This document shows positions 1,366-56,848 of a stretch of 64,000 nt of DNA, in pieces. The DNA is taken from contig CAVZKT010000002.1 in assembly GCA_963775955.1 (NCBI GenBank), positions 160,474 through 224,473 on the forward strand. The letters run 5' to 3'. Each line of letters starts with the position of its first letter. The stretch's first letter is position 1. The stretch comes from Candidatus Moraniibacteriota bacterium. GTDB lineage: Bacteria > Patescibacteriota > Minisyncoccia > Moranbacterales > UBA2206. The position numbers and the translations under genes were made by a program. Under the pieces are notes generated by a model. It was not told the DNA's origin. It did not search any database and saw only the letters and a list, made by a program, of their open reading frames with translations.

Positions 1366-1387
1366 ATTACTCTCTTAAATTTGAATC

Positions 1388-1470
1388 ATGTAGCATGTAA
1401 CATAGAACATGTAACATTTATTTTTTATAATTTGTTACATGCTATATGCTATGTGTTATGTGAACACAGT
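1388..1470. repeat. Long imperfect inverted repeat of CATGTAACAT-like units in the 23S-5S spacer
   Basis: catgtagcatgtaacatagaacatgtaacat ... tgttacatgctatatgctatgtgttatgtg. A related motif occurs at 30930-30960 and inside prmC. Confidence 0.6.
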
Positions 1471-2649: not shown

Positions 2650-2732
2650 TTAGTTATTAGTTTGTGGTTTTTAGTTTTTAGAAATTTCCGATTTTTTCAA
2701 GAACCAGGAGCTACAAGCCAAGAACTTTTATT

Positions 2733-8423: not shown

Positions 8424-9433
8424 ATGCCTTTATTTGTGCGGAAAATTGGAATTGATCTAGGAACAGCAAATACGCTGGTTTTTGTGCCAGGCAAAGGAGT
8501 GGTGGTGAACGAGCCGTCGGTGGTGGCGATTTCGATTTTGGATAATAAGGTTTTGGCGGTGGGAAATGATGCTAAGGAAATGCTCGGGCGCACGCCGGAT
8601 ACGATTGTGGCCAGCCGGCCAATGAAAGACGGAGTCATTGCCGATTACCGCATCACAGAAGCCATGCTTAAATATTTTATCAATAAGGTCAGCGGAAAAA
8701 TCCGCTTGATACGTCCGGAAATCATGATTTCCATTCCGGCGGGAGTAACTTCCACGGAAAGAAGAGCGGTGATTGACGCGGCGGTGCGCGCGGGAGCCAA
8801 GGCCGCTTATGTGGTCAAGGAACCGGTGTTGGCGGCCATCGGCGCCGGCATTCCGATTAATTCTCCAGCGGGAAATATGATAATTGACATTGGCGGAGGA
8901 ACTTCGGAAGTCGCGATCATATCTCTGGGCGGAATTGTGGCGGCGCACAGCGCGCGGGTGGGCGGAAATAAGCTGGATCAGGCGATTTCCGACTACATCA
9001 AAAGAAAACACGGCTTGGCAATTGGGGAAAGGACGGCCGAAGAAATAAAAATCAAAATCGGCTCAGCCATTGCCCAAGTGAAAGAAGAATATATGGAAGT
9101 GCGGGGTCGCGATCTTACCGGCGGTTTGCCGAAGACGGTAAAAATTTCTTCCAACGAAATCACAGAAGCGCTGCAGGATGAGCTGCGCGAAATTATCAAT
9201 ACCATCAAAAAGGTTTTGCAGGATACTCCGCCGGAGCTGGCCGCGGATGTTATGGACAAGGGCATGGTGCTTTCCGGAGGCGGGGCGCTTCTGCGCCACA
9301 TTGACCAGTTGATTACCAAGACAATCGAGGTGCCGTGTTATGTGGCGGATGATCCGCTTTATCTGCGTTATTAAAGGCATTGGGATCGCTCTTGGATAAT
9401 TTGGACGTGTATAAGGACGATAATGCTAACTAA
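8424..9433 (+). CDS. mreB: rod-shape determining protein MreB; C-terminal 25 codons in shifted frames (two indels ~9352 and ~9395)
   Basis: IGIDLGTANTLVFV...DGVIADY...IIDIGGGTSEVAIISLGG, typical actin-like MreB. The conserved tail CVIKGIGIAL/DNLDVYKDDNAN is only found by frame switching. Confidence 0.85.
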
Positions 9434-9461
9434 TGCGTAAGTAGACTTATCGTAAAAATAA

Positions 9462-10640
9462 TGGATGAACGTTCCAGATTGGCAGTTATGCGATAGGCAT
9501 TGACGTCCGTGCGTTTTTAAAACAGCGAACGGGAGTGGAGGAATATTCTTATCAAGTTATAAAACACCTGACGAATAAATTAAATAATGCTCAGGTGGTT
9601 TTGTATTTGCGCAAAAAATCAAACAGTAGATATTACGAATTACCGGAAAATTGGAAAATAAAAATAATCAAATGGCCATATTTATGGACACAAATTGGGT
9701 TGTAAGCTTGGAAATGTTTTTTCATCCAGTGGATGCTTTGTTTATTCCGGCGCATACGGTGCCGATGATTCATCCAAACAATACAATCGTGACAATCCAT
9801 GGTTTGGAATATGAATTTTGTCCCGAAGGCATATTCTTTTTGGGCGAGGCTGTATATGCGCTGGTCTATTAAAAATTCCTGCCGGTGGGCGAAGACGATC
9901 ATAGCCGTATCTAATAATACTAAAAAAGATTTGATGAGATTGTATAAAGTGCCGGAGGAGAAGATCAAGGTGATTTATGAAGGATATGACGCTGATGCGA
10001 AATCCCAAATCCCAAATCCCAAATCCAAAATAAATCCCAAATTACAAATCCAAAATTCAAAATTTTTACTATTCGTTGGTCGTCTCGAAGAGCGCAAAAA
10101 TATTGCTGGCATTATTAAAACTTTTGAAATTTTAAAAGAACAGTATAAATTACCGCATAAATTAATTTTGGCCGGATAAGTTCGGATATGGCACGAGAAA
10201 AAATAGAGGCTTCTATAGAGGATTCTAATTTCAGAAAAGATATTATTTTACCGGGATATATAACTGACGAATGAAAAATGGGAACTTTTAAAAAACGCGG
10301 ATGTATTTTTATTTCCGACATTCTATGAAGGTTTTGGCATTCCGATTTTGGAAGCGCAAAGCGTGGGCGTGCCAGTGGTGGCAGGAATAATTCTTCTATT
10401 CCGGAAGTTGTGAAACGTGTTTCTAAAACCGAGTTTTCAAATTCTCTAAAACTCGGTTTTAGAACAGTGACGAAAATTCCGCGATTTTAGTTAATCCAAT
10501 GAATGCCGAAGAGATAGCCGATGCCGCCTATAAACTGATTTCGGACAAAGCCTTGAGAGATGATATAATAAAGAAAGGCTATGAGAATGTGAAAGATTTA
10601 GTTGGGAAAAATGCGCAGAGGAAATCGCTGAAATTTTGAC
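9462..10640 (+). pseudogene. degraded family-4 glycosyltransferase paralogue (at least 5 frame disruptions/stops) containing an AAATCCC-type microsatellite
   Basis: GT4-like pieces in three frames: IGIDVRAFLKQRTGVEEY; DTNWVVSLEMFFHPVDALFIPAHTVPM; KFLLFVGRLEERKNI; EGFGIPILEAQSVGVPVVAG. Microsatellite aaatcccaaatcccaaatccaaaataaatcccaaattacaaatccaaaattcaaaa at 9999-10062. Confidence 0.6.
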
Positions 10641-10696
10641 AAAATAAAAAGGGCAGATTAACGAACCTGCCTTTGTGGGTTGCTTTACTGCGGGTA

Positions 10697-10921
10697 TTAT
10701 TTTGTGGTTTTCCATGCAATTCGTTTTAGGACATTGGCAAATTCGCCTGCCTTACTGGATGGGATGAATATTTCTCCGTTTAACAAGGTGCTCTTTTCTA
10801 ATTCATCCGTTCTATTCTCTTCCTGACTTATTTCTACCTTATCAACGATGAAGCCGGCTTTTTCTAAAATACTAACCTGTTTGCTTGTTGCATTATCAAA
10901 CTTAACAATAAGTTGTAACAT
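10697..10921 (-). CDS. hypothetical small protein (74 aa)
   Basis: Strong RBS AAGGAGG 7 nt upstream of the ATG on the minus strand. No family recognised. Confidence 0.5.
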   Translation of the reverse strand: MLQLIVKFDNATSKQVSILEKAGFIVDKVEISQEENRTDELEKSTLLNGEIFIPSSKAGEFANVLKRIAWKTTK

Positions 10922-10985
10922 AGCAAGCCTCCTTTTTTGGAACTATAATTAACCCATTAGGATTTCAATCAAGTATAGCATATAC

Positions 10986-12272
10986 ATGGATAAAAGTCAA
11001 GAGCAATTAAATAACACTAAAAATAACCCTTTAATAAAGGGAAATATTAAAGTTGCAATAGTCCATGACTTTCTGGTCCAATGTGGAGGGGCGGAGAGGG
11101 TTTTGGAGGTGCTCGCGGAAATGTTTCCGGAAGCGCCGATTTATACTTTGCTTTATGATAAAGAAAAAATGTCCGCCCAAGGCGGACCAGCCTTTGGCTG
11201 GCGCAACCGAGATATTCGCACATCTTTTTTGCAAAAATTCCCCAAATTTATCCGCAAAAGATACAAATATCTCCTGCCCCTGATGCCGACCGCGCCGGAA
11301 GTTTGGGATCTGCGTGATTTTGACCTGGTAATTTCCAGTTCCGGCGCCTGGAGCAAAGGAATAGTCACCCGCCTGAATACTATTCATATTTCCTATCTTC
11401 ACAGCCCAATGCGCTTTGTTTGGGACGCCAACAGTGAATATCTGCGCGGACAGAAAAAATGTTTTCTGGTGAACTTTTTTTCCCGGATGCTTCTCAATTA
11501 TATCCGCGTCTGGGACAAAGTAGCGGCTGACCGGCCAGATTACATTATTGCCAATTCAAAATATACGCAAAGGAGGATTGAAAAATATTATGGAAGAGAA
11601 AGTGTGGTTATTTACCCGCCCGCATCGCTACGCGAGCCCGCCTGCAACGATTGCATTTCGGGCAGGCAAGCTCGCTTGCGAAGCGTTGCGGGCGGGCCCG
11701 CCGATAGAAATGACCCGGGGTATTTTCTCGTTGTTTCCCGGCTTTCGCCTTACAAAAATGTAGATAAAATCGTGGAAGCGTTTAATAAGCTGGAATTGCC
11801 ACTGGTGGTAATCGGAGAAGGGCAACAAAAAAAATATTTGCAGAAAATCGCCGGGAAAAATATAAAAATTTTAGGCTGGCAAACGGATGAAAAAAAAGCG
11901 GAATATTATGCCAACGCCTGCGGGTTTATTTTCGCGAGCGTAGATGATTTTGGCATTACCCTGGTTGAAGCTATGGCGCACGGCTTGCCGGTGGCGGCCA
12001 TTCGCAAGGGCGGAGCATTGGAGATAGTGATCGAAGGAAAAACCGGCGAGTTTTTTGACGAGGCCACGCCGGAAGTAATTGCCGATGGAGTGAGAAGGCT
12101 AGTGGAAAATTTGGGGGACTATGACAAAGAGTTTATTGTTGGCAGGGCGAAAGAGTTTAGCAAAGAACGGTTTGTCAGAGAGTTTAGGGAATATATAAGT
12201 TCTGTAATTACAAAATCCAAAATCCAAATATCAAACAAAATCCCTGCCTGCCGGCAGGCAGGCAAAATCTAA
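10986..12272 (+). CDS. family-4 glycosyltransferase (GT4) carrying a ~90-nt GC-rich palindromic in-frame insertion and a C-terminal microsatellite/palindrome-encoded tail
   Basis: GT4 pattern: DFLVQCGGAERV...; YPPAS ... YFLVVSRLSPYKNVD ... EGFG-like FGITLVEAMAHGLPV. Insert 11625-11720 encodes LREPACNDCISGRQARLRSVAGGPADRND. The tail ITKSKIQISNKIPACRQAGKI is encoded by a microsatellite plus the palindrome cctgcctgccggcaggcagg. Confidence 0.75.
   Translation: MDKSQEQLNNTKNNPLIKGNIKVAIVHDFLVQCGGAERVLEVLAEMFPEAPIYTLLYDKEKMSAQGGPAFGWRNRDIRTSFLQKFPKFIRKRYKYLLPLMPTAPEVWDLRDFDLVISSSGAWSKGIVTRLNTIHISYLHSPMRFVWDANSEYLRGQKKCFLVNFFSRMLLNYIRVWDKVAADRPDYIIANSKYTQRRIEKYYGRESVVIYPPASLREPACNDCISGRQARLRSVAGGPADRNDPGYFLVVSRLSPYKNVDKIVEAFNKLELPLVVIGEGQQKKYLQKIAGKNIKILGWQTDEKKAEYYANACGFIFASVDDFGITLVEAMAHGLPVAAIRKGGALEIVIEGKTGEFFDEATPEVIADGVRRLVENLGDYDKEFIVGRAKEFSKERFVREFREYISSVITKSKIQISNKIPACRQAGKI
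11625..11720. repeat. GC-rich palindromic insertion inside the GT4 ORF (arms gcccgcctgcaacg / cgttgcgggcgggc; inner palindrome gcaagctcgcttgc)
   Basis: Local GC far above genome average. Dyad symmetry. In-frame (90 nt). A related palindrome lies in holB at 12549-12586. Confidence 0.6.
12243..12262. repeat. GC palindrome cctgcctgccggcaggcagg (copy 1 of 3)
   Basis: Perfect 20-nt palindrome. Identical cores at 32673-32691 and 54204-54223 (28-nt identity with the latter including the flanking gcaaaat). Confidence 0.8.
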
Positions 12273-12325
12273 AACTTTAAAAATTTTGAAGTTTAGTCAT
12301 TTGAACTTGATTTGGAATTTGAACT

Positions 12326-13268
12326 TTGAAATTTGGATTTAAAAACATTATGCACATCATCGGCCACAATAAAATCACTAACCTTTTAAACAGAAGCATT
12401 GCTCGAGGCATTGTAGGACAGGCCTATCTTTTTTCCGGTCCGGAACATCTGGGCAAGTTTACCGTGGCTTTGGATTTTGCCCAAAGATTGGCTGGCGGCA
12501 ATGTGAAAATAAATCCAGACTTAATAATTATCAGACCGGAAGGGAACCCTGCCCGCAATGCTGCGCATAGCGTTGCAGGCGGGGAAAAAAGGAATTGTTA
12601 AAAAAACTCCGCCGCGGCGGATTAAAATCGAACAAATCCGCGATCTTATACATAAGTTAAGCCTGATGGCCGCCAGCGGAAAATATAAAGTTGCCGTTAT
12701 TGACGATGCTGACCGCTTGAATAAAGCCGCGCAAAACGCGCTACTGAAAACTCTGGAAGAGCCGAATGACAAAATAGTGCTGATTTTAATTTCTCAAGAC
12801 AATAAAAAAATACTTGCGACGATTAAATCGCGCTGCCAACGGGTTAAATTCGGTCCGGTTTCCCGGGAAGAGCTTGAAAAAAATATTCCGGTTGGCGAAA
12901 AAAACAAACAAGCTTTAATTTTTTGGTCGCTGGGTCGTCCCGGATTGATGCTGAGTCTTGCGAGAGACAAATGTGAAGTTGATTTTAGAGAAGATGCGGC
13001 GGCGGAGCTGAAAATGTTGCTGAATAAAGGTTTAGCAGAAAAACTTGCTCTAGCCGAAACATTGGGAAAAGACACTCGTGAAGCGGCTAAAAAACTGAAT
13101 TTGTGGATGGTGATCCTGCGTGAAAATCTGCTGGGCAAGGGCCTTTTTGAGAAAAACCAGAAAAAATATTTAAGGATTATTGAAAATATTGAAAAAAGCC
13201 TGGAATTAATAAAAGAAACCAATTCAAATGCACGGCTTATTTTGGAAAATTTATTTTTGCATTTTTGA
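12326..13268 (+). CDS. holB: DNA polymerase III delta' subunit (HolB), frame broken at a ~38-nt GC palindrome (12549-12586)
   Basis: N-terminal part GQAYLFSGPEHLGKFTVALDFAQRL...NPDLIIIRPE; downstream frame IKIEQIRDLIHKLSLMAASGKYKVAVIDDADRLNKAAQNALLKTLEEP...SRCQRV. The junction coincides with the palindrome ccctgcccgcaa..ttgcaggcgggg. Confidence 0.7.
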
Positions 13269-30525: not shown

Positions 30526-30939
30526 ATGATAGGGGAAAGCTCAAAAAATAAAGGCAGGAGCCTTAACCTGAAGAAAAAAATCAGGTCTTTTTTTGCGCGG
30601 GAATATTTCAAAAGCCATATTGTCCGTTGGCTCTTGGCGTTTATTGGCATGGCCAATCTGGCCAACTGGGCGGCGCTTAAAATTTTTGTCCAGCCGGTTG
30701 ACTTGCCGATAATTCTGCACTATAATGTTTATTTCGGAGTGGATATGCTGGGCGGCTGGAAAAACCTGTTTTTACTGCCGGCGGTAGGCCTGATTTTATT
30801 TCTAATTAATTTTTTTCTTTCCATCCATTTTTATAAAAGAAAAGAAAGAATCGCAAGCTACCTGCTTCTGATGGCGACACTAATGATCCAGCTAAGCCTG
30901 ATTGTCGCTTCGGCCAGCGTGATAATAATTAATTATTAA
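30526..30939 (+). CDS. hypothetical integral membrane protein (137 aa)
   Basis: Four hydrophobic segments. Confidence 0.45.
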   Translation: MIGESSKNKGRSLNLKKKIRSFFAREYFKSHIVRWLLAFIGMANLANWAALKIFVQPVDLPIILHYNVYFGVDMLGGWKNLFLLPAVGLILFLINFFLSIHFYKRKERIASYLLLMATLMIQLSLIVASASVIIINY

Positions 30940-30961
30940 CACATGACACATAGCACATAAC

Positions 30962-32656
30962 ATGTTTAATTTTCCTAACCCAAAAACTACCGAGCCGAAA
31001 GAGAGAAGGGCGCAAAGAATTCTGGAAATAATTCCGGGCGTTTTAACTTGGACGACTTTTTTAGGCATGATAATTTTTTCTTTCTGGTTGCCGGTATGGG
31101 TGGCGGTTTTTGTCATCATTTTCGATATTTACTGGATTTTTCGGACCATTTTTATCGCTTCTTATTCTGTTGCCGGATACCGCAAGCTTAAGGAAGGCAA
31201 AAAAATTGACTGGTGGGAAAGGTGCCAGAATATTTCAGATCCGGCAAAATATAGGGAAGTGATAAAAGAAAAAATAGGCCATATGCAAAATGTCCTCAAA
31301 GACGGGAAATTTATAAAGCGCCGGGAGAAAAAAATTTTGATGCGGGAAATAAGCAGGCAGGAAAAATATCTCAAAGAGGTAGAGTGTTTGCGAAAAATTA
31401 AAGACCAAATACTGGATTGGCGGGAAATTATCCATGTGGTTATGCTGCCTACGGCCGGTGAGCCGGCGGAGATTATTGAGCCGGCGATTCAATCAGTAGC
31501 CAACGCCAATTTTCCTAACCGCCAGATTATAATTCTTTTGGCCACGGAAGGGCGTGAGGCAGAAAAACACAGGCTGAAAAAAATTGAATATCTTAAAAAC
31601 AAATTCTCGGGAATATTCCGGGATTTTATCGTGACTACCCATATTGTGAGCCCCGGAGAAATAAAATGCAAAGCTTCCAACGCCACTTTTGCTGCCAGAG
31701 AACTTATAAAATATCTGGACGAACGCCAAATAGACTATAAAAAAGTTGTGTTTTCCAACTTTGACTGCGACACTGTGGTTCATCCGGAATATTTTGCCGC
31801 CCTCACCTACGCTTATATTACCGAGCCTAAACGGCTGCAAATGGCCTATCAGCCCCTGCCGATGTATCATAACAATCTTTGGGATACCAATGCGTTTGTG
31901 CGGGTTATTGTGACTGGTTCGAGTTTCTGGCACATATTTCAAAGCACCCGGCCGGAATATATGGTCACTTTTTCTTCCCACAGCGAGCCTTTTGACACGC
32001 TGGCGAAAGTGAATTTTTGGCCGGTGAATATGATTAGTGAAGACTCAATAATTTATTGGAAATGCTTTGCATATTTTAACGGAAATTATAAAGTCAAGCC
32101 GATCTATCTGCCTGTTTCTTTGGACGCAGTGTTGGCGGAGTCCTATTGGAAAACAATTGTCAATCAATACAAGCAAAAACGGCGCTGGTCTTACGGCATT
32201 GAAAATTTTCCGGTAATCATGCGGTCGCTTTTTCCGAATAAAAAAATCAGCTTGGTAAAAAAAGCGCGAGTGGCCATTGAAATGCTGGAAGGGCATCATT
32301 CCTGGGCGACAGCGCCGTTTATTCTGGCAATCCTGGGATGGCTGCCGCTGATTGTCGGAGGAGATGTGTTCGGGCAAAGCGTTCTGGCGCATAATCTCCC
32401 GCTGATGACCAGAAATCTTATGAATCTCGCTATGCTGGGCCTGATTGTTTCCGTTTCTCTGAGTTTTCTGCTGATGCCTCCTCGGCCCAAAAAATATTCC
32501 AAGTGGCGGAATATTTATATGGTTTTGCAATGGGTGCTGGTTCCGGTTTCCGCCCCCTTCCTGGGCGCGATGCCGGCCGTTGAATCCCAGACTCGGCTCA
32601 TGCTGGGAAAATATTTCGGTGAATTTTGGGTAACTGAAAAAATAAGAAAACGATGA
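30962..32656 (+). CDS. processive family-2 glycosyltransferase (cellulose/chitin/hyaluronan synthase-like; QxxRW motif)
   Basis: N-terminal TMs. ...NFDCDTVVHPEYF (DxD region) ... QKRRWSYG (QxxRW). C-terminal TM bundle. Confidence 0.7.
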   Translation: MFNFPNPKTTEPKERRAQRILEIIPGVLTWTTFLGMIIFSFWLPVWVAVFVIIFDIYWIFRTIFIASYSVAGYRKLKEGKKIDWWERCQNISDPAKYREVIKEKIGHMQNVLKDGKFIKRREKKILMREISRQEKYLKEVECLRKIKDQILDWREIIHVVMLPTAGEPAEIIEPAIQSVANANFPNRQIIILLATEGREAEKHRLKKIEYLKNKFSGIFRDFIVTTHIVSPGEIKCKASNATFAARELIKYLDERQIDYKKVVFSNFDCDTVVHPEYFAALTYAYITEPKRLQMAYQPLPMYHNNLWDTNAFVRVIVTGSSFWHIFQSTRPEYMVTFSSHSEPFDTLAKVNFWPVNMISEDSIIYWKCFAYFNGNYKVKPIYLPVSLDAVLAESYWKTIVNQYKQKRRWSYGIENFPVIMRSLFPNKKISLVKKARVAIEMLEGHHSWATAPFILAILGWLPLIVGGDVFGQSVLAHNLPLMTRNLMNLAMLGLIVSVSLSFLLMPPRPKKYSKWRNIYMVLQWVLVPVSAPFLGAMPAVESQTRLMLGKYFGEFWVTEKIRKR

Positions 32657-32657
32657 C

Positions 32658-32716
32658 CCCGGTTAAATTTTCCCTGCCTGCCGGCAGGCAGACGCCCCGG
32701 GTGGAATTTAACAGGG
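32658..32716. repeat. Family B hairpin element copy B4 (CCGGTTAAATT ... AATTTAACAGGG) containing GC palindrome cctgcctgccggcaggcag (32673-32691)
   Basis: Inverted termini plus the conserved GC palindrome. Lies between the GT2 stop and the next start. Confidence 0.6.
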
Positions 32717-35005: not shown

Positions 35006-35841
35006 GGTGAAAATTATTAATGCTTGCCCCGCACCAATTTTTGTAAAAACTTCCGTAATTAATTGTCAGAGCCGATAGGTGGCTTCGCCTTTGGGCTATG
35101 CAATAATTCATAGCTTTGTTTGAAATTGGTGCCGGGGTGAACTTTCATTGAAGCTTGTCTTTGAATTTTAGCAAAACAGGAAACCGCGTCAACTGGACAA
35201 AAACGCTTGTCTAGGGCATAATATTGGGATAAAATCTCAAATCCTAAATCTTAAATCCCAAATAAATCCCAATTTCCAAAATCCGAAATTTTTTTAATTA
35301 TCCGATAAAAAGTTTTTAATTTTGAAAATTATAATTTTGAATTTATTTAGATTTTATAATTTTGAATTTGTTATTTTTAAACCAGAAATGAAAAATTATT
35401 AGAATAAAAACACGGTTTGTTTGTAATAATTTATGAAGTTTGGTAAAAATACTACCTGTGGATAACTTTCTTGCTATTGCAAAATAAAAAAATATGGTGT
35501 ATAATTAAAAGCAAGTAAAATTATTTTATCAAAATAATTTTATGAAAAATAAAAATCAGGTCGAACAAAAAACATTAAAATACCAACTCAAGGCGAATTT
35601 CGCCAAACAGTAAAAAAAATAGAAAGGACGGTGAAACAAAATGGCAAAAAAGAAAAAGGCTGCAAAAAAGAAAAAGAAAGGTGGAAAAAAGAAAAAGAGA
35701 TAGTCTTTTGTAGCTAATCCCGGCCTGCTTCTGCTCGGCACTAATAGGGTGCAAGCACTTGGTAGGCTGGAAAATATATTATCAACTTTTGGTTTTTAAA
35801 CTGCTTTTTAGCAAAAAAGATCAATTGTTATAAAGCAAAAA

Positions 35842-35993: not shown

Positions 35994-36875
35994 TTAAAAG
36001 ACAATCCTGCAGACCCGCCATTTGCCAGCCATGTCTTTTTTAAACTCAAGTTTGGCGCCTGGCAGGATGAAAGCCGCTAGCTTTGTAAGAGCAGGTTTTT
36101 GTTCAGGACTAATTTCCATGAAACATGAAACATGAAACATGAAACATTTACTTTTTATTTTTTTTATTTGTTTTAAAAGTTTTGTGTAATGTCCTAAACC
36201 GCTCTGCGAACTAAATAAGGCGGATTTTGGCTCGAAATTTTTAACATCCCGCGGAGTTGAATTATAAATTTCTTTTGAAAGGTAGGGAAGATTTGCCAGG
36301 ATAATTAAATTGCTACATTGTTGTATTGTTGAATTGTTACTAAGTTTTTTGTTTTTTAGCAGATCAGATTTTAAAAAAGTAATATTTTTATCCACTTTAT
36401 GTTTCCTGGCGTTATGTTTTGCAACCAAGAGGGCTTTATTAGAAATATCAATGCCAAAAAATCTCATATTGTTCCATGTTCCATGTTTTATGTTATGTGC
36501 CAAGGATGTTATTATATTTCCGCTGCCGGTGCCAACATCTATAATAGTTTTTGGTTTGTAGTTTTTGGTTTGTAGCTCCTTGATAGCTAATTCTACTAAT
36601 AATTCAGTTTCGGGGCGGGGGATGAGCGTGTGTCTGTTTACCTTAAAATCAAGCCCAAAAAACTCCTTGCGGCCTAAAATATAGGCCAAAGGCTCTCCGC
36701 GTCTGCGGCGAGCCAGCAAGTTTTTAGTTTTTAGTTTCTGGTTTTTAGTGAGGTTGTGTTCCGGATGGGCTAAAACAAACTCACGAGTTTTTCCAATCTC
36801 GTGAGCGATTATGAGCTCCAAATCCAGAGCGTCAATTTTGTTATGATATTTTTTGCAAATTTCTCTTATTGTCAT
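35994..36875 (-). CDS. prmC: release factor glutamine methyltransferase PrmC (HemK) with in-frame low-complexity insertions
   Basis: HTLIPRPETELLVE; IIDVGTGSGNI; NLPY (NPPY-like). Inserts encoded by ggtttgtagtttttggtttgtag, gtttttagtttctggtttttag and catgaaacatgaaacatgaaacat repeats. Confidence 0.8.
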   Translation of the reverse strand: MTIREICKKYHNKIDALDLELIIAHEIGKTREFVLAHPEHNLTKNQKLKTKNLLARRRRGEPLAYILGRKEFFGLDFKVNRHTLIPRPETELLVELAIKELQTKNYKPKTIIDVGTGSGNIITSLAHNIKHGTWNNMRFFGIDISNKALLVAKHNARKHKVDKNITFLKSDLLKNKKLSNNSTIQQCSNLIILANLPYLSKEIYNSTPRDVKNFEPKSALFSSQSGLGHYTKLLKQIKKIKSKCFMFHVSCFMEISPEQKPALTKLAAFILPGAKLEFKKDMAGKWRVCRIVF

Positions 36876-37961
36876 TTGGCCATTTTCAATTTTATATCTT
36901 CATCGGCCAGAGCGGTAATAATGTCTTCAATATTTCCGTCCAGAATACCGATGGCAAATTGCTCCAGCTCTGCTTAATCGCGGTGGTCGGTGACGCGGTC
37001 CTGCGGGAAAATTATAAGTCCTAATTTTTTCACTGCGGTCGCCGGTGCCAATTTGGTTTTTTCTGACGTCGCCCGTTTCTTTGGCTCTTTTTTCTTCTTC
37101 CGCCTGCAATAACCGCGAACGCAAAACTTTCATGGCCTTATCCTTGTTTTTAAGCTGGGATTTTTCGTCCTGGCAGCTAACTATTAATCCGGTGGGAATA
37201 TGGGTGATACGCACGGCGCTTTTAGTGGTGTTTACTGACTGTCCGCCCGGGCCGGAAGAGCAAAAAGTGTCAATTCTCAGGTCTTTTTCTTCAATTTTAA
37301 GCTCTACTTCTTCAGCTTGGGGGAGGACTGCCACCGTAGCGGTGGAAGTATGGATTCGTCCCGATTTTTCTGTTTCCGGAATTCTTTGCACGCGGTGCAC
37401 GCCGGATTCATATTTCATCTTACTGAATACATCTTTTCCATTTATTTCAAAAGTAGCTTCCTTGAAACCGCCGATTCCAATGGTACTCGAATTTAAAAGC
37501 GCCGTTTTCCAGCCGTTTTTTTCGGCATAATGGCTGTACATGCGGAAAAGATCCGCCGCAAAAAGGGCGGACTCGTCTCCGCCGGCGCCGGCGCGAATTT
37601 CTACAATGACATCTTTGGAGTCATTTGGGTCTTTGGGAATCAGAATTTTTTCCAGTTCTTTTTCCAGCTTCGCTTTTCTTTCTGAAAGTTTGATATTTTC
37701 GTCCATGGCCATTTGTTTAAGCTCGCCGTCTTCCTCTGAGTTTATAATTTTGGCGTTTTCTTTCATTTCCCTTTCTGTCTTCTCGTATTCATTAATAACA
37801 TTCACGACTTCGGCCAGTTCCGCCTGTCTTTTGCCAAGTTCCGCCATAATTTTCCGATCAGAAACCACCTCGGGATCGGCGAGTTTTTCCTGGATTTCGG
37901 CGTATTCTTTTTTAATCTCGTCGATTTGGTTACGCATATTGATAAAAATACCATAATACAC
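36872..37961 (-). CDS. prfA: peptide chain release factor 1 (PrfA); C-terminal region carries a 1-nt frameshift (~36990-36998) and an in-frame TAA (36974-36976) before the conserved last ~33 codons, whose stop overlaps the prmC start (ATGA)
   Basis: [39 protein letters not shown] (GGQ). Frame C gives [44 protein letters not shown] ending at 36872. Confidence 0.75.
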
Positions 37962-51758: not shown

Positions 51759-51807
51759 ATGAAGATTTATTTAAAATACTCTGAAATTATAGTAGAAAAA
51801 GGGCAAT

Positions 51808-51836
51808 TTGACAAAAAACAAATTTCCACATATAAT
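51808..51836 (+). promoter_or_regulatory. consensus promoter TTGACA-17-TATAAT upstream of the KH-trmD operon (~105-nt leader)
   Basis: ttgacaaaaaacaaatttccacatataat. Confidence 0.65.
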
Positions 51837-51946
51837 ATGCCTGAAAGCAAGTTACGGAGGCCAGCCAAATAGGTGAGGCAAAGGATGCCAGGTCGAACTT
51901 CCATTATCCGCCAGCTTTCAAGATAATAAATCAAAGAATCACCAAT

Positions 51947-52258
51947 ATGGCAGATCAAGACAGGGATTTTGTTGAATATGTTGTCAAACAAATAGTCAAC
52001 AATCCGGACGCTGTTAAGGTTGACAGAAAAATCGATGAAATGGGCGTTCTTATTTCTTTGGACGTAGCTCCGGAAGATATGGGAATGGTTATCGGTCGAG
52101 AGGGCGCAACCGCCAAGGCTCTCAGAACCCTTCTGCGGGTTATCGGCGCAAAAAACAATGCCCGGGTAAACCTCAAAATCAACGAACCGGAAGGTTCCGA
52201 GAGAAAGCCACGGGAGCAGAGAAGCATTGATGAAGTTGTCGGAGGCATTGAAGTTTAG
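51947..52258 (+). CDS. KH-domain RNA-binding protein (KhpA/YlqC family)
   Basis: VIGREGATAKALRTLLRVIGA (GxxG KH core). Conserved position upstream of trmD. Confidence 0.7.
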   Translation: MADQDRDFVEYVVKQIVNNPDAVKVDRKIDEMGVLISLDVAPEDMGMVIGREGATAKALRTLLRVIGAKNNARVNLKINEPEGSERKPREQRSIDEVVGGIEV

Positions 52259-52322
52259 GTTAAAAATCAGTATTTTGTTTAGACAAAAAGGCCGCAAAAC
52301 GGCTTTTTTGTTTTGATAAAAT

Positions 52323-53039
52323 GTGGTAAGATTAAATCGCATGCGCTTTGAAATAATTACAATTTTTCCAGAAATTTTTAATTCCTATTTTTCGGAATCA
52401 ATAATTAAGCGCGCCCAAAAAGCGGGGCTGATTGACGTTGGAATTAATGATTTACGGGATTTTACAACTGACAAGCACAAAACGGTGGACGACACGCCAT
52501 ATGGCGGCGGAGCGGGAATGGTGCTCAAAATTGAACCCATCTGGCGATGTGTCCAATTTATAAAATCCAAAATCCAAAATACCAAATTCCAAATAAATCC
52601 AAAATCCAAAACTCAAAATTCAAAAACGCGGATTATTTTATTTTCCGCCAAAGGAAAAAAGTACACGCAGAAAGATGCCAAGAGACTGGCTAAATATGAT
52701 AATTTAATTTTAATTTGTGGGCGCTACGAAGGTGTAGACGAACGGGTGGCAAAATATATTGCCGATGAAGAAATTTCCATCGGCGATTTTGTGCTGACTG
52801 GCGGAGAAATTCCGGCGATGATCTTGGTTGATTCAATATCCAGGTTAATTCCGGGGGTTTTGGGGAATATTGAAAGCGCCAAAGAAGAATCGCATAATAT
52901 TGAAGGTTATTTAGAGTTTCCCCAATACACAAAGCCGGAGATTTATAATAAATGGAAAGTTCCGAAAATTTTGCTTTCCGGAAACCATGAAGAAATAGAA
53001 AGATGGCGGAAAAAACATTCTAAAATTTTAGGAGCTTAG
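52323..53039 (+). CDS. trmD: tRNA (guanine37-N1)-methyltransferase TrmD with an in-frame microsatellite-encoded insertion
   Basis: [13 protein letters not shown]...[16 protein letters not shown] ... insert [21 protein letters not shown] ... [12 protein letters not shown]...GDFVLTGGE. Confidence 0.85.
52558..52625. repeat. AAATCCAAA-type microsatellite inside trmD (in frame)
   Basis: aaatccaaaatccaaaataccaaattccaaataaatccaaaatccaaaactcaaaattcaaaa. Confidence 0.8.
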
Positions 53040-54181: not shown

Positions 54182-54333
54182 TGTTAAATAAATTTTGCTA
54201 GAACCTGCCTGCCGGCAGGCAGGCAAAATTAAGATTTGAGAAAAAAACAGGAGAATTAAAAAATAAATTTTAATATTAAGAAAAATAAGTTGTTTCTATA
54301 AAACATAGACTTAAATCTTATTTAACAGGGTAA
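54182..54333. mobile_element. Family B element copy B3 (13-nt perfect TIR CCCTGTTAAATAA) containing GC palindrome cctgcctgccggcaggcagg (54204-54223)
   Basis: ccctgttaaataa ... ttatttaacaggg. Sits between ftsW and the murG ATG. Confidence 0.7.
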
Positions 54334-55441: not shown

Positions 55442-56848
55442 ATGCTGGATTTATCCAAGATCAAAAAAGCGTATCTTATCGGCATCAAAGGCGCCGGCAT
55501 GGCGGCGGTGGCGGAAATTTTACATGGGCGCGGAGTTAAGGTTTCTGGATCGGATACGAGTGAGAAATTTTTTACCGACGAAATTTTGGGGAAAAATAAC
55601 ATAAAATATTTTGAAAAATTCTCCACTGATAATCTTCCTGCCGACGCGGATATAATTTTATACGCTACATGTTATGGCGAAGATAACAATGTGGAACTGG
55701 CGGAAGCGAGAAAAAGAAATTTAAATATATTAAGCTATCCCGAAATTTTAGGTGAATTATTCAAGGAAAAAATGGGCATTGCGGTTTGCGGGACGCACGG
55801 CAAAACAACCACAACTGCGCTTTTGGCTGAATGTTTGCGCGTGGCCGGAATTGATCCGGGTGCGATTGTCGGCAGTAAGGTTATTCAGTGGCAAGGAAGT
55901 TCACTGGCCGGCAACGGGAAATATTTTGTGGCTGAAGCAGATGAATATCAAAATAAATTGCAATACTACAATCCATTCGCGGTGATACTTACCAATGTTG
56001 ACTGGGATCATCCGGATTATTTCCCGACATTTACTGAATACAAAAAAGTATTTGCTGATTTCGTGGCGCGCATTCCCAAACACGGATTTTTGACGATCTG
56101 GGGAGACAGCACGGATACGCTGGATATTTCTAGGCAGGCTAGGTGTGAAATTTTGTCCTATGGTTTTTCTGAAGATTGTGATTATACAATTTTCAATTTT
56201 CAATTTTCAATTTTCAATGAAATTCTAAATTCCAATGACCAAAACTTTCAAAAATTTGATTTAAAATTTAAAGAAAAAAGTTTGGGGACATTTGAAATAA
56301 AATTAGTTGGCAAGCATAATGTCTTGAACGCCGCGGCGGCGGTTGCAGTGTGCCATAAACTGGGAGTTGATATGGAAAAAGTGCGCGAGGCTCTCAAAAA
56401 TTTCCAGGGAACAGCGCGGCGGTTTGAATATATCGGTGAGCGTAACGGCGCGATTCTCATTGATGATTATGCCCATCATCCGGAAGAAATTAAAGCCACT
56501 CTTAAGGCGGCGCGGGAAATTTATCCAGAAAAAAATATTATAACTGTTTTTCATCCGCACACTTTCACTCGCACTAAGGCGTTTCTCCAGGAATTCGCGC
56601 AGAGTTTTAATGATGCTGATCAAGCCATCATCATTGACATTTACGGCAGCGCCCGTGAGGTTCAGGGGGGAGTTTCTTCCAAAGAACTGGTTAATTTAAT
56701 TAATAGATATGATCGCGATAAGGCCAAATATATTCCGACAATTAATGAAGTTATGGAATGCCTGAAAGATAAAATCGGCGCCGGGGACGTTGTCATTTCA
56801 ATGGGCGCGGGGGATGTGTGGAGGGTGGTCAGTCAGTTGAAAATATAA
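55442..56848 (+). CDS. murC: UDP-N-acetylmuramate--L-alanine ligase MurC with an in-frame microsatellite insertion (56189-56220)
   Basis: IGIKGAGMAAVAEIL; GTHGKTTTTALLA; insert FNFQFSIFNEILNSN encoded by (attttca)n; GTARRFE. Confidence 0.85.
   Translation: MLDLSKIKKAYLIGIKGAGMAAVAEILHGRGVKVSGSDTSEKFFTDEILGKNNIKYFEKFSTDNLPADADIILYATCYGEDNNVELAEARKRNLNILSYPEILGELFKEKMGIAVCGTHGKTTTTALLAECLRVAGIDPGAIVGSKVIQWQGSSLAGNGKYFVAEADEYQNKLQYYNPFAVILTNVDWDHPDYFPTFTEYKKVFADFVARIPKHGFLTIWGDSTDTLDISRQARCEILSYGFSEDCDYTIFNFQFSIFNEILNSNDQNFQKFDLKFKEKSLGTFEIKLVGKHNVLNAAAAVAVCHKLGVDMEKVREALKNFQGTARRFEYIGERNGAILIDDYAHHPEEIKATLKAAREIYPEKNIITVFHPHTFTRTKAFLQEFAQSFNDADQAIIIDIYGSAREVQGGVSSKELVNLINRYDRDKAKYIPTINEVMECLKDKIGAGDVVISMGAGDVWRVVSQLKI

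Follow-up and report, generated by a model that had tools for sequence, protein, structure and literature searches.

Introduction

Heptanucleotides are the commonest class of long simple sequence repeat (SSR) in many bacteria, according to Mrazek, Guo and Shah (2007) as far as their work is summarized in PMC4692102 and PMC4679880. The same summaries report from Mrazek and colleagues that the roughly 7 nucleotides (nt) of DNA in contact with the polymerase may favour slippage, which is the only published idea on the 7-nt preference, and that repeats in coding sequence tend to have units divisible by three. The G-rich heptamers of Nostoc and Xanthomonas and the TAACTGA repeats of Beggiatoaceae are mainly intergenic (PMC4692102, PMC4679880). 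Our literature searches retrieved no paper tying the Candidate Phyla Radiation (CPR), Parcubacteria or Patescibacteria to heptanucleotide, heptamer or simple-sequence repeats. Here we describe heptamer arrays in a 64,000-nt stretch of a Candidatus Moraniibacteriota genome (assembly GCA_963775955.1, contig CAVZKT010000002.1, positions 160,474 to 224,473; hereafter the window), starting from an array inside trmD, the gene for the tRNA m1G37 methyltransferase. The closest TrmD and PrmC proteins also carry names that point to a Moranbacteria-type organism within the Parcubacteria/Patescibacteria. We propose, with a probability of about 0.7, that such arrays arise by heptamer-biased slippage, survive selection in spacers and permissive loops, and then decay, with exchange between arrays.

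A degenerate heptamer array in frame within trmD

52341-53039, plus strand: trmD, tRNA m1G37 methyltransferase, 232 aa (Pfam PF01746, tRNA_m1G_MT, E=8e-58)
52558-52625, plus strand: degenerate (A)AAATCC heptamer array in trmD (in-frame translation, Tandem Repeats Finder)

The initial annotation had placed a repeat in frame at 52558-52625 inside trmD, and translation of the open reading frame (ORF) together with Tandem Repeats Finder bears this out: the array encodes a 21-residue in-frame peptide rich in Lys, Gln, Asn and Ser. The unit had been given as a 9-mer, but the program returns a period of 7 nt, and the units are indeed 7 nt long and now and then 8. For 52562-52625 it reports the consensus AAAATCC in 8.6 copies with 78% matches and 13% indels, and additionally a higher-order period of 32 nt (2 copies, 87%). 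The layout is that of two 32-nt higher-order units, the first made of four heptamers plus AAAT and the second of four heptamers.

The insert is placed between a helix that ends near FIKS and the strand RIILFSAKG. Compared with the structure of PDB entry 8byh, TrmD of the window is longer by 16 residues, precisely where the array lies, ahead of the strand leading into the LFSAKG loop that binds S-adenosylmethionine. An AlphaFold model of modest confidence (predicted local distance difference test score, 64), used for secondary-structure placement only, assigns the array to the last part of helix 64-85 and to a low-confidence loop (86-95) before strand 96-102. The loop is hypervariable in length among orthologues (0 to about 40 aa): across 51 relatives the GM-to-strand distance ranges from 22 to 51 residues with a baseline near 25, compared to 38 in the window. 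It is also Lys-rich in all relatives, the baseline loop being already K/S-rich, and the start of the array falls in the ancestral K-S-K codons of the loop (AAA TCN AAA). We predict that the array acts as a tolerated extension of 13-16 residues in this helix-strand loop, with no demonstrated function.

In the relative L095, a species whose TrmD (P0005) is 77% identical, the insert aligns without gaps to that of the window at 85% identity and has the same layout of four units, a truncated AAAC/AAAT and four units. The derived peptide pattern QIxNxKxQxNxKxK is common to many other TrmD orthologues. Because a species at this distance carries the insert in the same architecture, we take it to be old. 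The copy is degenerate, shared with other species, and neither recent nor demonstrably unstable.

Upstream of trmD lies a KH-domain gene (KhpA/B-like, 51947-52258), and the order KH-domain gene, trmD, ftsW is kept in the relatives L093 and L095. A 191-aa minus-strand ORF (51767-52342) that overlaps the KH-domain gene is probably spurious.

Excess of period-7 arrays in the window and in related genomes

To call an array, we required that two unit-lengths agree with the following copy at all but two positions at most, leaving out low complexity of period 1-3; the chance level was taken from composition-matched block dinucleotide shuffles. The comparison set consisted of 80 loci surrounding trmD, each from a different Parcubacteria species and 1.14 Mb in total, and stop-free frames of at least 120 aa served as the proxy for genes. 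By this rule the window holds 14 period-7 arrays where the shuffles lead one to expect 0.67. Of the remaining periods, 8 occurs twice (0.1 expected) and 6 occurs 12 times (5.1 expected), with periods 4 and 5 at expectation. Clusters of at least three AAATCC-like units number four, compared to 0.34 expected. The related loci contain 236 arrays of period 7, 13 of period 8 and 6 of period 9, and the density of period-7 arrays is about 0.2 per kb there and in the window alike. Under the same rule, neither 100 kb of E. coli K-12 nor 50 kb of phage T4 (34% GC) contained a single period-7 array. Set against unit lengths 8 and 9 and against chance, this excess at period 7 is that of a heptanucleotide SSR class.

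The units of the clade are AT-rich and highly diverse (e.g. AAAAATT, AAAATTG, AAATTAG and AAATCCC). With units so diverse and period 7 dominant, it is the period that is favoured, not a particular sequence. Arrays are about seven times denser in spacers than in genes, with 0.72 per kb outside long stop-free frames compared to 0.11 per kb inside, yet 109 of the 250 arrays (about 44%) sit within such frames; selection therefore appears to thin coding arrays without eliminating them. Copy number and purity are alike for coding and noncoding arrays (median about 4 copies).

Recurrence of arrays at the same loops with different units

We compared the TrmD loops with equal-sized windows elsewhere in the same genes and found a period-7 self-match of at least 80% in 18 of the 51 loops versus 6 of the 421 control windows, with almost no period other than 7 detected. 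The units of different lineages are unrelated to one another:

L004: AAGTTCA x4
L008: AAATCCC x3
L031: ATTCAAA x4
L040: AAATTTC x4
L046: GACAGCA x4
L047: GTCAAAT x4 (baseline loop length)
L049: GAAATCC x4

Two trmD sequences of one 90% cluster, L093 (1257-1320) and L094 (300-360), carry arrays whose units differ in every copy. Their identity is about 90% upstream and 100% downstream of the loop array, and L094 is a 781-nt contig of 2x coverage; the jump reflects recombination with its breakpoint at the array or else a chimera in a contig of low coverage. The truncated TrmD P0250 of L093 was rejected as a case of slippage, the frameshift at the array edge being one of 1 nt rather than of a 7-nt unit and possibly a sequencing error.

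Arrays were likewise found in two further core genes of the window:

55442-56848, plus strand: murC, UDP-N-acetylmuramate-L-alanine ligase (Pfam, three Mur ligase domains)
56187-56218, plus strand: perfect (CAATTTT)x4.6 array in murC, within a hairpin of variable length in the middle domain (Tandem Repeats Finder, 100% matches)
35994-36875, minus strand: prmC, release-factor glutamine methyltransferase, holding four arrays, downstream of prfA (36927-37961)
36117-36147, minus strand: perfect (ATGTTTC)x4.4 array in prmC, given in the sense strand, encoding KCFMFHVSCFM (Tandem Repeats Finder, 100%)
36470-36494, minus strand: CATGGAA-type array in prmC, translated as NIKHGTWNN; several orthologues share this insert of 6 aa
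36545-36575, minus strand: (AAACCAAAAACTAC)x2.2 array in prmC, translated as LQTKNYKPKTI, at an indel hotspot that precedes the GTGSG motif
36719-36749, minus strand: (AAAAACT)x4.4 array in the N-domain of prmC, encoding TKNQKLKTKNL (Tandem Repeats Finder)

The murC array encodes IFNFQFSIFNEIL, read as FNFQFSIFNE in the middle-domain hairpin, and MurC has 9 extra residues at this segment compared with structure 9ir5. Every orthologue has the hairpin, its length differing by as many as about 13 residues. It carries differing heptamer arrays in the window, L001, L006 and L008 (42-48 residues) and is non-repetitive in L003, L004, L005, L007 and L009 (35-41 residues). When PrmC is compared with Thermotoga maritima HemK (1sg9), gaps of 6 residues at HGTWNN and of 6-7 residues at CFMFHVS are seen, with a gap of 2 residues at LQTKNYKPKTI and none at TKNQKLKTKNL; the last segment (aa 43-53) has the same length as in all orthologues. 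The peptide CFMFHVSCFM is kept across many PrmC orthologues and is encoded by a perfect DNA repeat in the window.

These comparisons settle much of what the initial annotation had claimed for the remaining sites. All of them (murC, prmC, the pseudogene and the C-terminal tail of two glycosyltransferase genes, and two intergenic sites) do contain repeats. Its description of a single repeat throughout holds for trmD, the glycosyltransferase pseudogene and tail and the intergenic sites near 35.2 and 47.4 kb; murC and prmC carry other heptamers. Both arrays that it cited in prmC exist, and those at 36117-36147 and 36470-36494 had escaped it. Structure and orthologue comparison supports its view that the frame is kept and that TrmD, MurC and PrmC tolerate repeat-encoded segments at loop positions. 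Relative to solved structures the segments add length in TrmD (16 aa), at two arrays of PrmC and in MurC (9 aa), but not every site is a net insertion: aa 43-53 of PrmC show no change, and the MurC hairpin is length-variable in all orthologues. Whether a segment is ancestral linker or insertion, which orthologue alignment was to decide, depends on the site and on the depth of the comparison. Protein length does vary among orthologues as had been suggested, through a clade-wide heptamer class with many units rather than through one repeat inserted everywhere.

Changes in unit number split prmC in relatives

Within one cluster of PrmC proteins at 90% identity, the full-length proteins read ...QDTRYKIQDTRIVDVGTGSG, and several members are identical upstream and then undergo a frameshift or stop inside the QDTRYKIQDTRIVDVGTGSG peptide. 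At the DNA level the full-length allele contains (ATACAAG)x5, and alleles of four units, on at least 22 contigs, and of three units are also present. The surrounding 3-4 kb of these strains are 99.4-100% identical, and the change in ATACAAG units is the sole indel inside genes among six strains. The off-frame alleles divide prmC into an ORF for the N-domain and an ORF for the methyltransferase domain. The array occupies the position of the LQTKNYKPKTI array of the window, just before the GTGSG motif. A second species shows the same pattern with (ATTGGAA)x4 in the full-length gene and x3 in a split gene. Thus, in-frame and off-frame alleles that differ only in unit number occur in prmC of two related species.

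In the four-unit allele (L084:1501-2390) the stop codon TAG of the N-domain ORF overlaps the GTG that starts the methyltransferase ORF at ...VDVGTGSG; judging from this overlap, the split gene might yield both domains by translational coupling.

No genes split at arrays were found in the 80 species-representative loci, where a frame-switch screen gave short-spacer arrays only, consistent with selection against off-frame alleles. Exact look-ups of TrmD and two metagenome scans for flank patterns of the murC and trmD arrays returned no close strain of the window organism. The instability suspected in the initial annotation is accordingly seen in relatives by strain comparison, where 7-nt unit alleles of prmC split the gene; an adaptive role for the phase variation that it also raised goes beyond what these alleles show.

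Proposed explanation and alternatives

We propose that a replication or repair process in these Parcubacteria strongly favours the duplication and loss of 7-nt units of any sequence; the period is observed, the enzymatic cause inferred. Arrays would arise everywhere and persist where harm is small, that is, in spacers, surface loops, interdomain linkers and termini. Coding arrays would survive only in a stop-free orientation and with a net length divisible by 3. Because the unit is 7 nt, only three-unit changes keep the frame, and three units (21 nt) would give 7 aa and be read in all three frames (e.g. KSQIPNP and CFMFHVS). Pure arrays would slip by whole units, such that a change of one or two units leads to a frameshift and a split gene and a change of three to a difference of 7 aa; the gene-splitting slip is observed in prmC of relatives, and the three-unit slip would be its in-frame counterpart. 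Point mutation would then turn arrays into stable, ordinary-looking loop sequence, the stage that the degenerate trmD array of the window would have reached. Since a higher-order structure of 2 x 32 nt is common to unrelated loci, the AAATCC-type arrays at these loci would be related copies, most simply by way of ectopic recombination or conversion.

The copies in question, besides that in trmD, are the following:

9400-10950, plus strand: glycosyltransferase family 4 (GT4) pseudogene (frame 2, many in-frame stops)
9997-10064, plus strand: AAATCCC-type array at the interdomain linker of the GT4 pseudogene, paralogous to the other copies of the ~64-nt element (Tandem Repeats Finder, alignments)
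35229-35296, plus strand: intergenic copy of the ~64-nt AAATCC-type element (Tandem Repeats Finder, alignments)
35312-35385, minus strand: degenerate copy in reverse orientation that makes an inverted pair with 35229-35296 (arms of 60 nt, 70% complementary)

The best surviving alternative, which we nevertheless hold to be unlikely, is that this ~64-nt element is mobile and non-autonomous, comparable to a cyanobacterial small dispersed repeat or a miniature inverted-repeat transposable element (MITE), and inserts in spacers and ORFs, the trmD insert being one such insertion. Indeed, the copies in trmD, in the GT4 pseudogene and at 35.2 kb and the reverse copy at 35.3 kb align gapless and in register at 76-78% identity and share one internal irregularity, four units plus AAAT plus three to four units. 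Elements with a central offset of 3-4 nt occur in other genomes too, often as adjacent inverted pairs, and a second, unrelated small element (GGCGGACCAGCCTTKGGCTGG) is present in ORFs of several genomes, including the loop of another TrmD. When TrmD orthologues are ordered by overall similarity, moreover, those that have the insert are interspersed with those that lack it; the loop is repetitive in most, so that precise empty sites are undefinable. By contrast, the copies are just 72-81% identical, no transposase was seen near those of the window, and most arrays of the clade have unrelated units, such that one element leaves the class unexplained. No terminal inverted repeats or target-site duplications were visible at the boundaries of the 4-5 copies inspected, which are in this respect not a MITE or small mobile dispersed repeat. 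On the basis that these hallmarks are missing and that the trmD array starts in the ancestral Lys-Ser-Lys codons, as suits growth in situ, local growth with exchange between arrays would be favoured over transposition. The homology of the copies is read mainly from the 2 x 32-nt layout, because the advantage of the in-register alignment over a shifted one is modest.

Less likely still is a selected function, in which Lys-rich loops aid the binding of tRNA or other RNA, or arrays serve as ON/OFF (fused/split) switches as in prmC. Consistent with such a role, the TrmD loop is Lys-rich throughout the relatives, the QIxNxKxQxNxKxK pattern of TrmD is conserved among species and the CFMFHVSCFM peptide across many PrmC orthologues (with its perfect DNA repeat in the window), and the off-frame prmC allele is common (at least 22 contigs) and has its stop over a GTG start that would allow a separate methyltransferase domain. 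Conversely, many TrmD orthologues have no insert (P0029, P0103), the units and hence the peptides at the same loop are wholly different between lineages, and a dead pseudogene and the spacers hold arrays just as commonly. At 3-5 units they are also short, unlike known contingency loci, and the evidence for switching consists of allele surveys.

That nothing special is at work, only ancestral low-complexity linkers of an AT-rich, Lys-rich genome or assembly artefacts, is highly improbable: a K/S-rich baseline loop of TrmD and the unchanged length of PrmC aa 43-53 would fit, but matched shuffles and AT-rich T4 give about no arrays, the enrichment is at period 7 only, perfect arrays of 4.4-4.6 copies are present, and both the pattern, in independent metagenome-assembled genomes (MAGs) of many projects, and the whole-unit alleles, over many contigs and samples, recur.

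Two further candidates were rejected. A telomere-like reading of AAATCCC fails since the heptamer is not a cyclic permutation of CCCTAAA. Diversification of the kind driven by diversity-generating retroelements (DGR) does not apply either, there being no template/variable pair and the loops lying outside the DGR target folds.

Several observations weigh against heptamer-biased slippage with selection and exchange. The identity of the AAATCC-type copies in register is only modestly above that after a shift by one unit (76% versus 70%, and 68% versus 56-61%), and their shared higher-order structure could reflect a mobile element. The recurrence at the same loop could be the turnover of one ancient array rather than repeated origin, and in an enzyme that binds tRNA Lys-rich loops may have a selected role. 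The split between coding and noncoding arrays depends on the stop-free-frame proxy, and the enzymatic cause of the 7-nt preference is presumed. Finally, instability was observed in relatives, and to assume it for the arrays of the window, the perfect ones of murC and prmC included, would be an extrapolation.

A farther-reaching version of heptamer-biased slippage, which we regard as speculative and rather doubtful, is that Patescibacteria have a dedicated or idiosyncratic process that generates and exchanges 7-nt repeats, among them ~64-nt higher-order heptamer elements moving from locus to locus, and that keeps seeding new loops in core proteins as well as heritable, possibly reversible fused/split or ON/OFF states of translation-fidelity genes such as prmC in natural populations. 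If true, housekeeping genes in ultra-small genomes would be under a contingency-like mechanism.

Other arrays and small elements of the window

12206-12240, plus strand: short AAAATCC array that the intact GT4 gene reads as its C-terminal tail (KSKIQISNK) and that makes up the forward arm in an inverted pair (Tandem Repeats Finder)
12243-12262, no strand assigned: perfect palindrome CCTGCCTGCCGGCAGGCAGG, GC-rich, separating the two array arms (sequence inspection)
12290-12340, minus strand: reverse-orientation (GGATTT/GAATTT-type) array, partner arm of 12206-12240 (Tandem Repeats Finder)
47318-47347, plus strand: (AATTTCT)x4.3 array between tRNA-Thr and tRNA-Trp (Tandem Repeats Finder)
47414-47440, minus strand: AAATCC-type array (GGATTT units) just upstream of tRNA-Trp (AAATCC cluster scan)
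1387-1462, plus strand: heptamer arrays of the units CATGTAA and ATGCTAT, between the 23S and 5S rRNA genes (Tandem Repeats Finder)
2650-2681, plus strand: (TTAGTTT)x4.6 array in a spacer, right behind the end of one gene and ahead of an ftsW/rodA-family gene (Tandem Repeats Finder)
30937-30962, plus strand: TAACACA/TGACACA/TAGCACA array filling the 22-nt spacer of two co-directional genes (Tandem Repeats Finder)

The rRNA genes that flank the array at 1387-1462 are the 3' part of the 23S gene (1-1376) and the 5S gene (1564-1679).

Intergenic AAATCC-type arrays often consist of a forward array followed by its reverse complement, which leads to long imperfect hairpins. Such inverted pairs are seen in the window at 12206-12340 and 35231-35377 and in relatives at L012:12970-13135, L013:5080-5225, L014:19120-19250, L052:17860-17995 and L059:7320-7425. 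The predicted fold of 12200-12345, the GC palindrome included, is more stable than that of shuffled sequences (z=-6.0), and the fold of 35225-35385 is not significant (z=-1.3). From these predictions, a hairpin function of the inverted array pairs would be strongly supported only where the GC palindrome is included.

The palindrome CCTGCCTGCCGGCAGGCAGG occurs three times (12243-12262, 32674-32691 and 54204-54223), each time just 3' of the end of a plus-strand gene, and looks like a dispersed element of the repetitive extragenic palindromic (REP) or terminator kind. The intact GT4 ORF runs through the AAAATCC array and one copy of the palindrome and has the tail ...IPACRQAGKI.

The GT4 pseudogene lies directly upstream of this intact paralogue (10986-12272), an unusual decay for so compact a genome. 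At the interdomain linker where the pseudogene holds its AAATCC array, the intact GT4 has a GC-rich insert of 30 aa. A second small element, GGCGGACCAGCCTT(T/G)GGCTGG, forms two short hairpins and is found within ORFs of several genomes: in the intact GT4 of the window (11172-11207 and 11631-11720) and at L007:10244, L040:2788 and L052:10866. It gives GGPAFGW in the GT4 of the window and GGPALGW in the TrmD loop of another species, and the related peptides PAGRQ, FAKASRG, SAKGGSAFGGK and PPKADQP occur in TrmD and PrmC loops of other relatives.

The array at 30937-30962 and an AGTAAAC x4 array at L025:6041-6079 consist of stop-containing units in very short spacers of co-directional genes and put stops in all three frames immediately ahead of the next start codon.

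Comparison with known repeat systems

The arrays described here explain many of the puzzling low-complexity inserts, and some of the split genes, in annotated CPR genomes, and they provide a simple route for the origin and turnover of protein loops. With their small genomes, reduced sets of replication and repair genes and thousands of MAGs, these bacteria also offer a comparative system for why 7 nt is favoured. The segregating frameshift alleles of prmC are a warning that gene calls at arrays from a single MAG may misrepresent the population.

The classic coding heptamer is that of neuO of the E. coli K1 phage CUS-3, with the unit 5'-AAGACTC-3', which keeps the frame only at unit counts divisible by three (PMC13001214). 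As in prmC of the relatives, the full-length protein depends on the frame, whole-unit slippage gives ON and OFF alleles, and the peptide repeat is 7 aa long, the product of three units. The neuO arrays, however, are long and pure (3-53 units), lie at the 5' end of an accessory gene for surface modification and have been measured to switch (PMC13001214), whereas ours have 3-5 units, lie in internal loops of housekeeping genes and have their switching read from allele surveys of relatives. They are not contingency loci: the tracts are short and internal (8.6 degenerate units in trmD) and the hosts are the core genes trmD, murC and prmC.

The tandem repeats of Borgs (PMC9879509) are likewise pervasive, A-rich and of independent origin in intergenic DNA and ORFs, and they also create new low-complexity protein segments at similar places in homologues. 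By contrast, the repeats within Borg ORFs are perfect and have units that are always divisible by three (PMC9879509), whereas a single-unit change of 7 nt breaks the frame. With a 7-nt unit and a 7-aa peptide period, our arrays are not amino-acid tandem repeats of the three-divisible Borg type.

Closer in period are the GGGGA(T/C)T short tandemly repeated repetitive (STRR) sequences of Nostoc and the GGGAATC repeats of Xanthomonas (PMC4692102), which share the 7-nt period, intergenic sites, convergent inverted arrays and strain variation at the same positions. Those units are G-rich and quadruplex-capable, with one or a few dominant per genome (PMC4692102); ours are AT-rich, diverse and in many cases coding. 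The arrays are therefore not cyanobacterial STRR sequences, which have G/C-rich dominant units such as CCCCAGT and GGGGAYT. The TAACTGA repeats of marine Beggiatoaceae (PMC4679880) sit, like the array at 30937-30962, in short spacers just upstream of starts and provide stops in three frames; they have a single favoured unit and a proposed regulatory role (PMC4679880), compared to many units and no evidence of regulation here.

The nearest relatives are the long SSRs of bacteria at large, for which the available summaries describe the same over-representation of 7-nt units, intergenic bias, length variation between close relatives, some inverted pairs and a proposed origin by slippage. As those summaries have it, long SSRs are known mainly from large genomes (Burkholderia, cyanobacteria, Xanthomonas and actinobacteria) and from intergenic DNA, whereas the present genomes belong to the CPR and are small, long frames hold about 44% of the arrays, and core housekeeping enzymes are among the hosts. 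What is new compared to the known heptanucleotide SSRs is thus the high density in tiny genomes, the location in loops of core enzymes and the recurrence at the same loops with different units.

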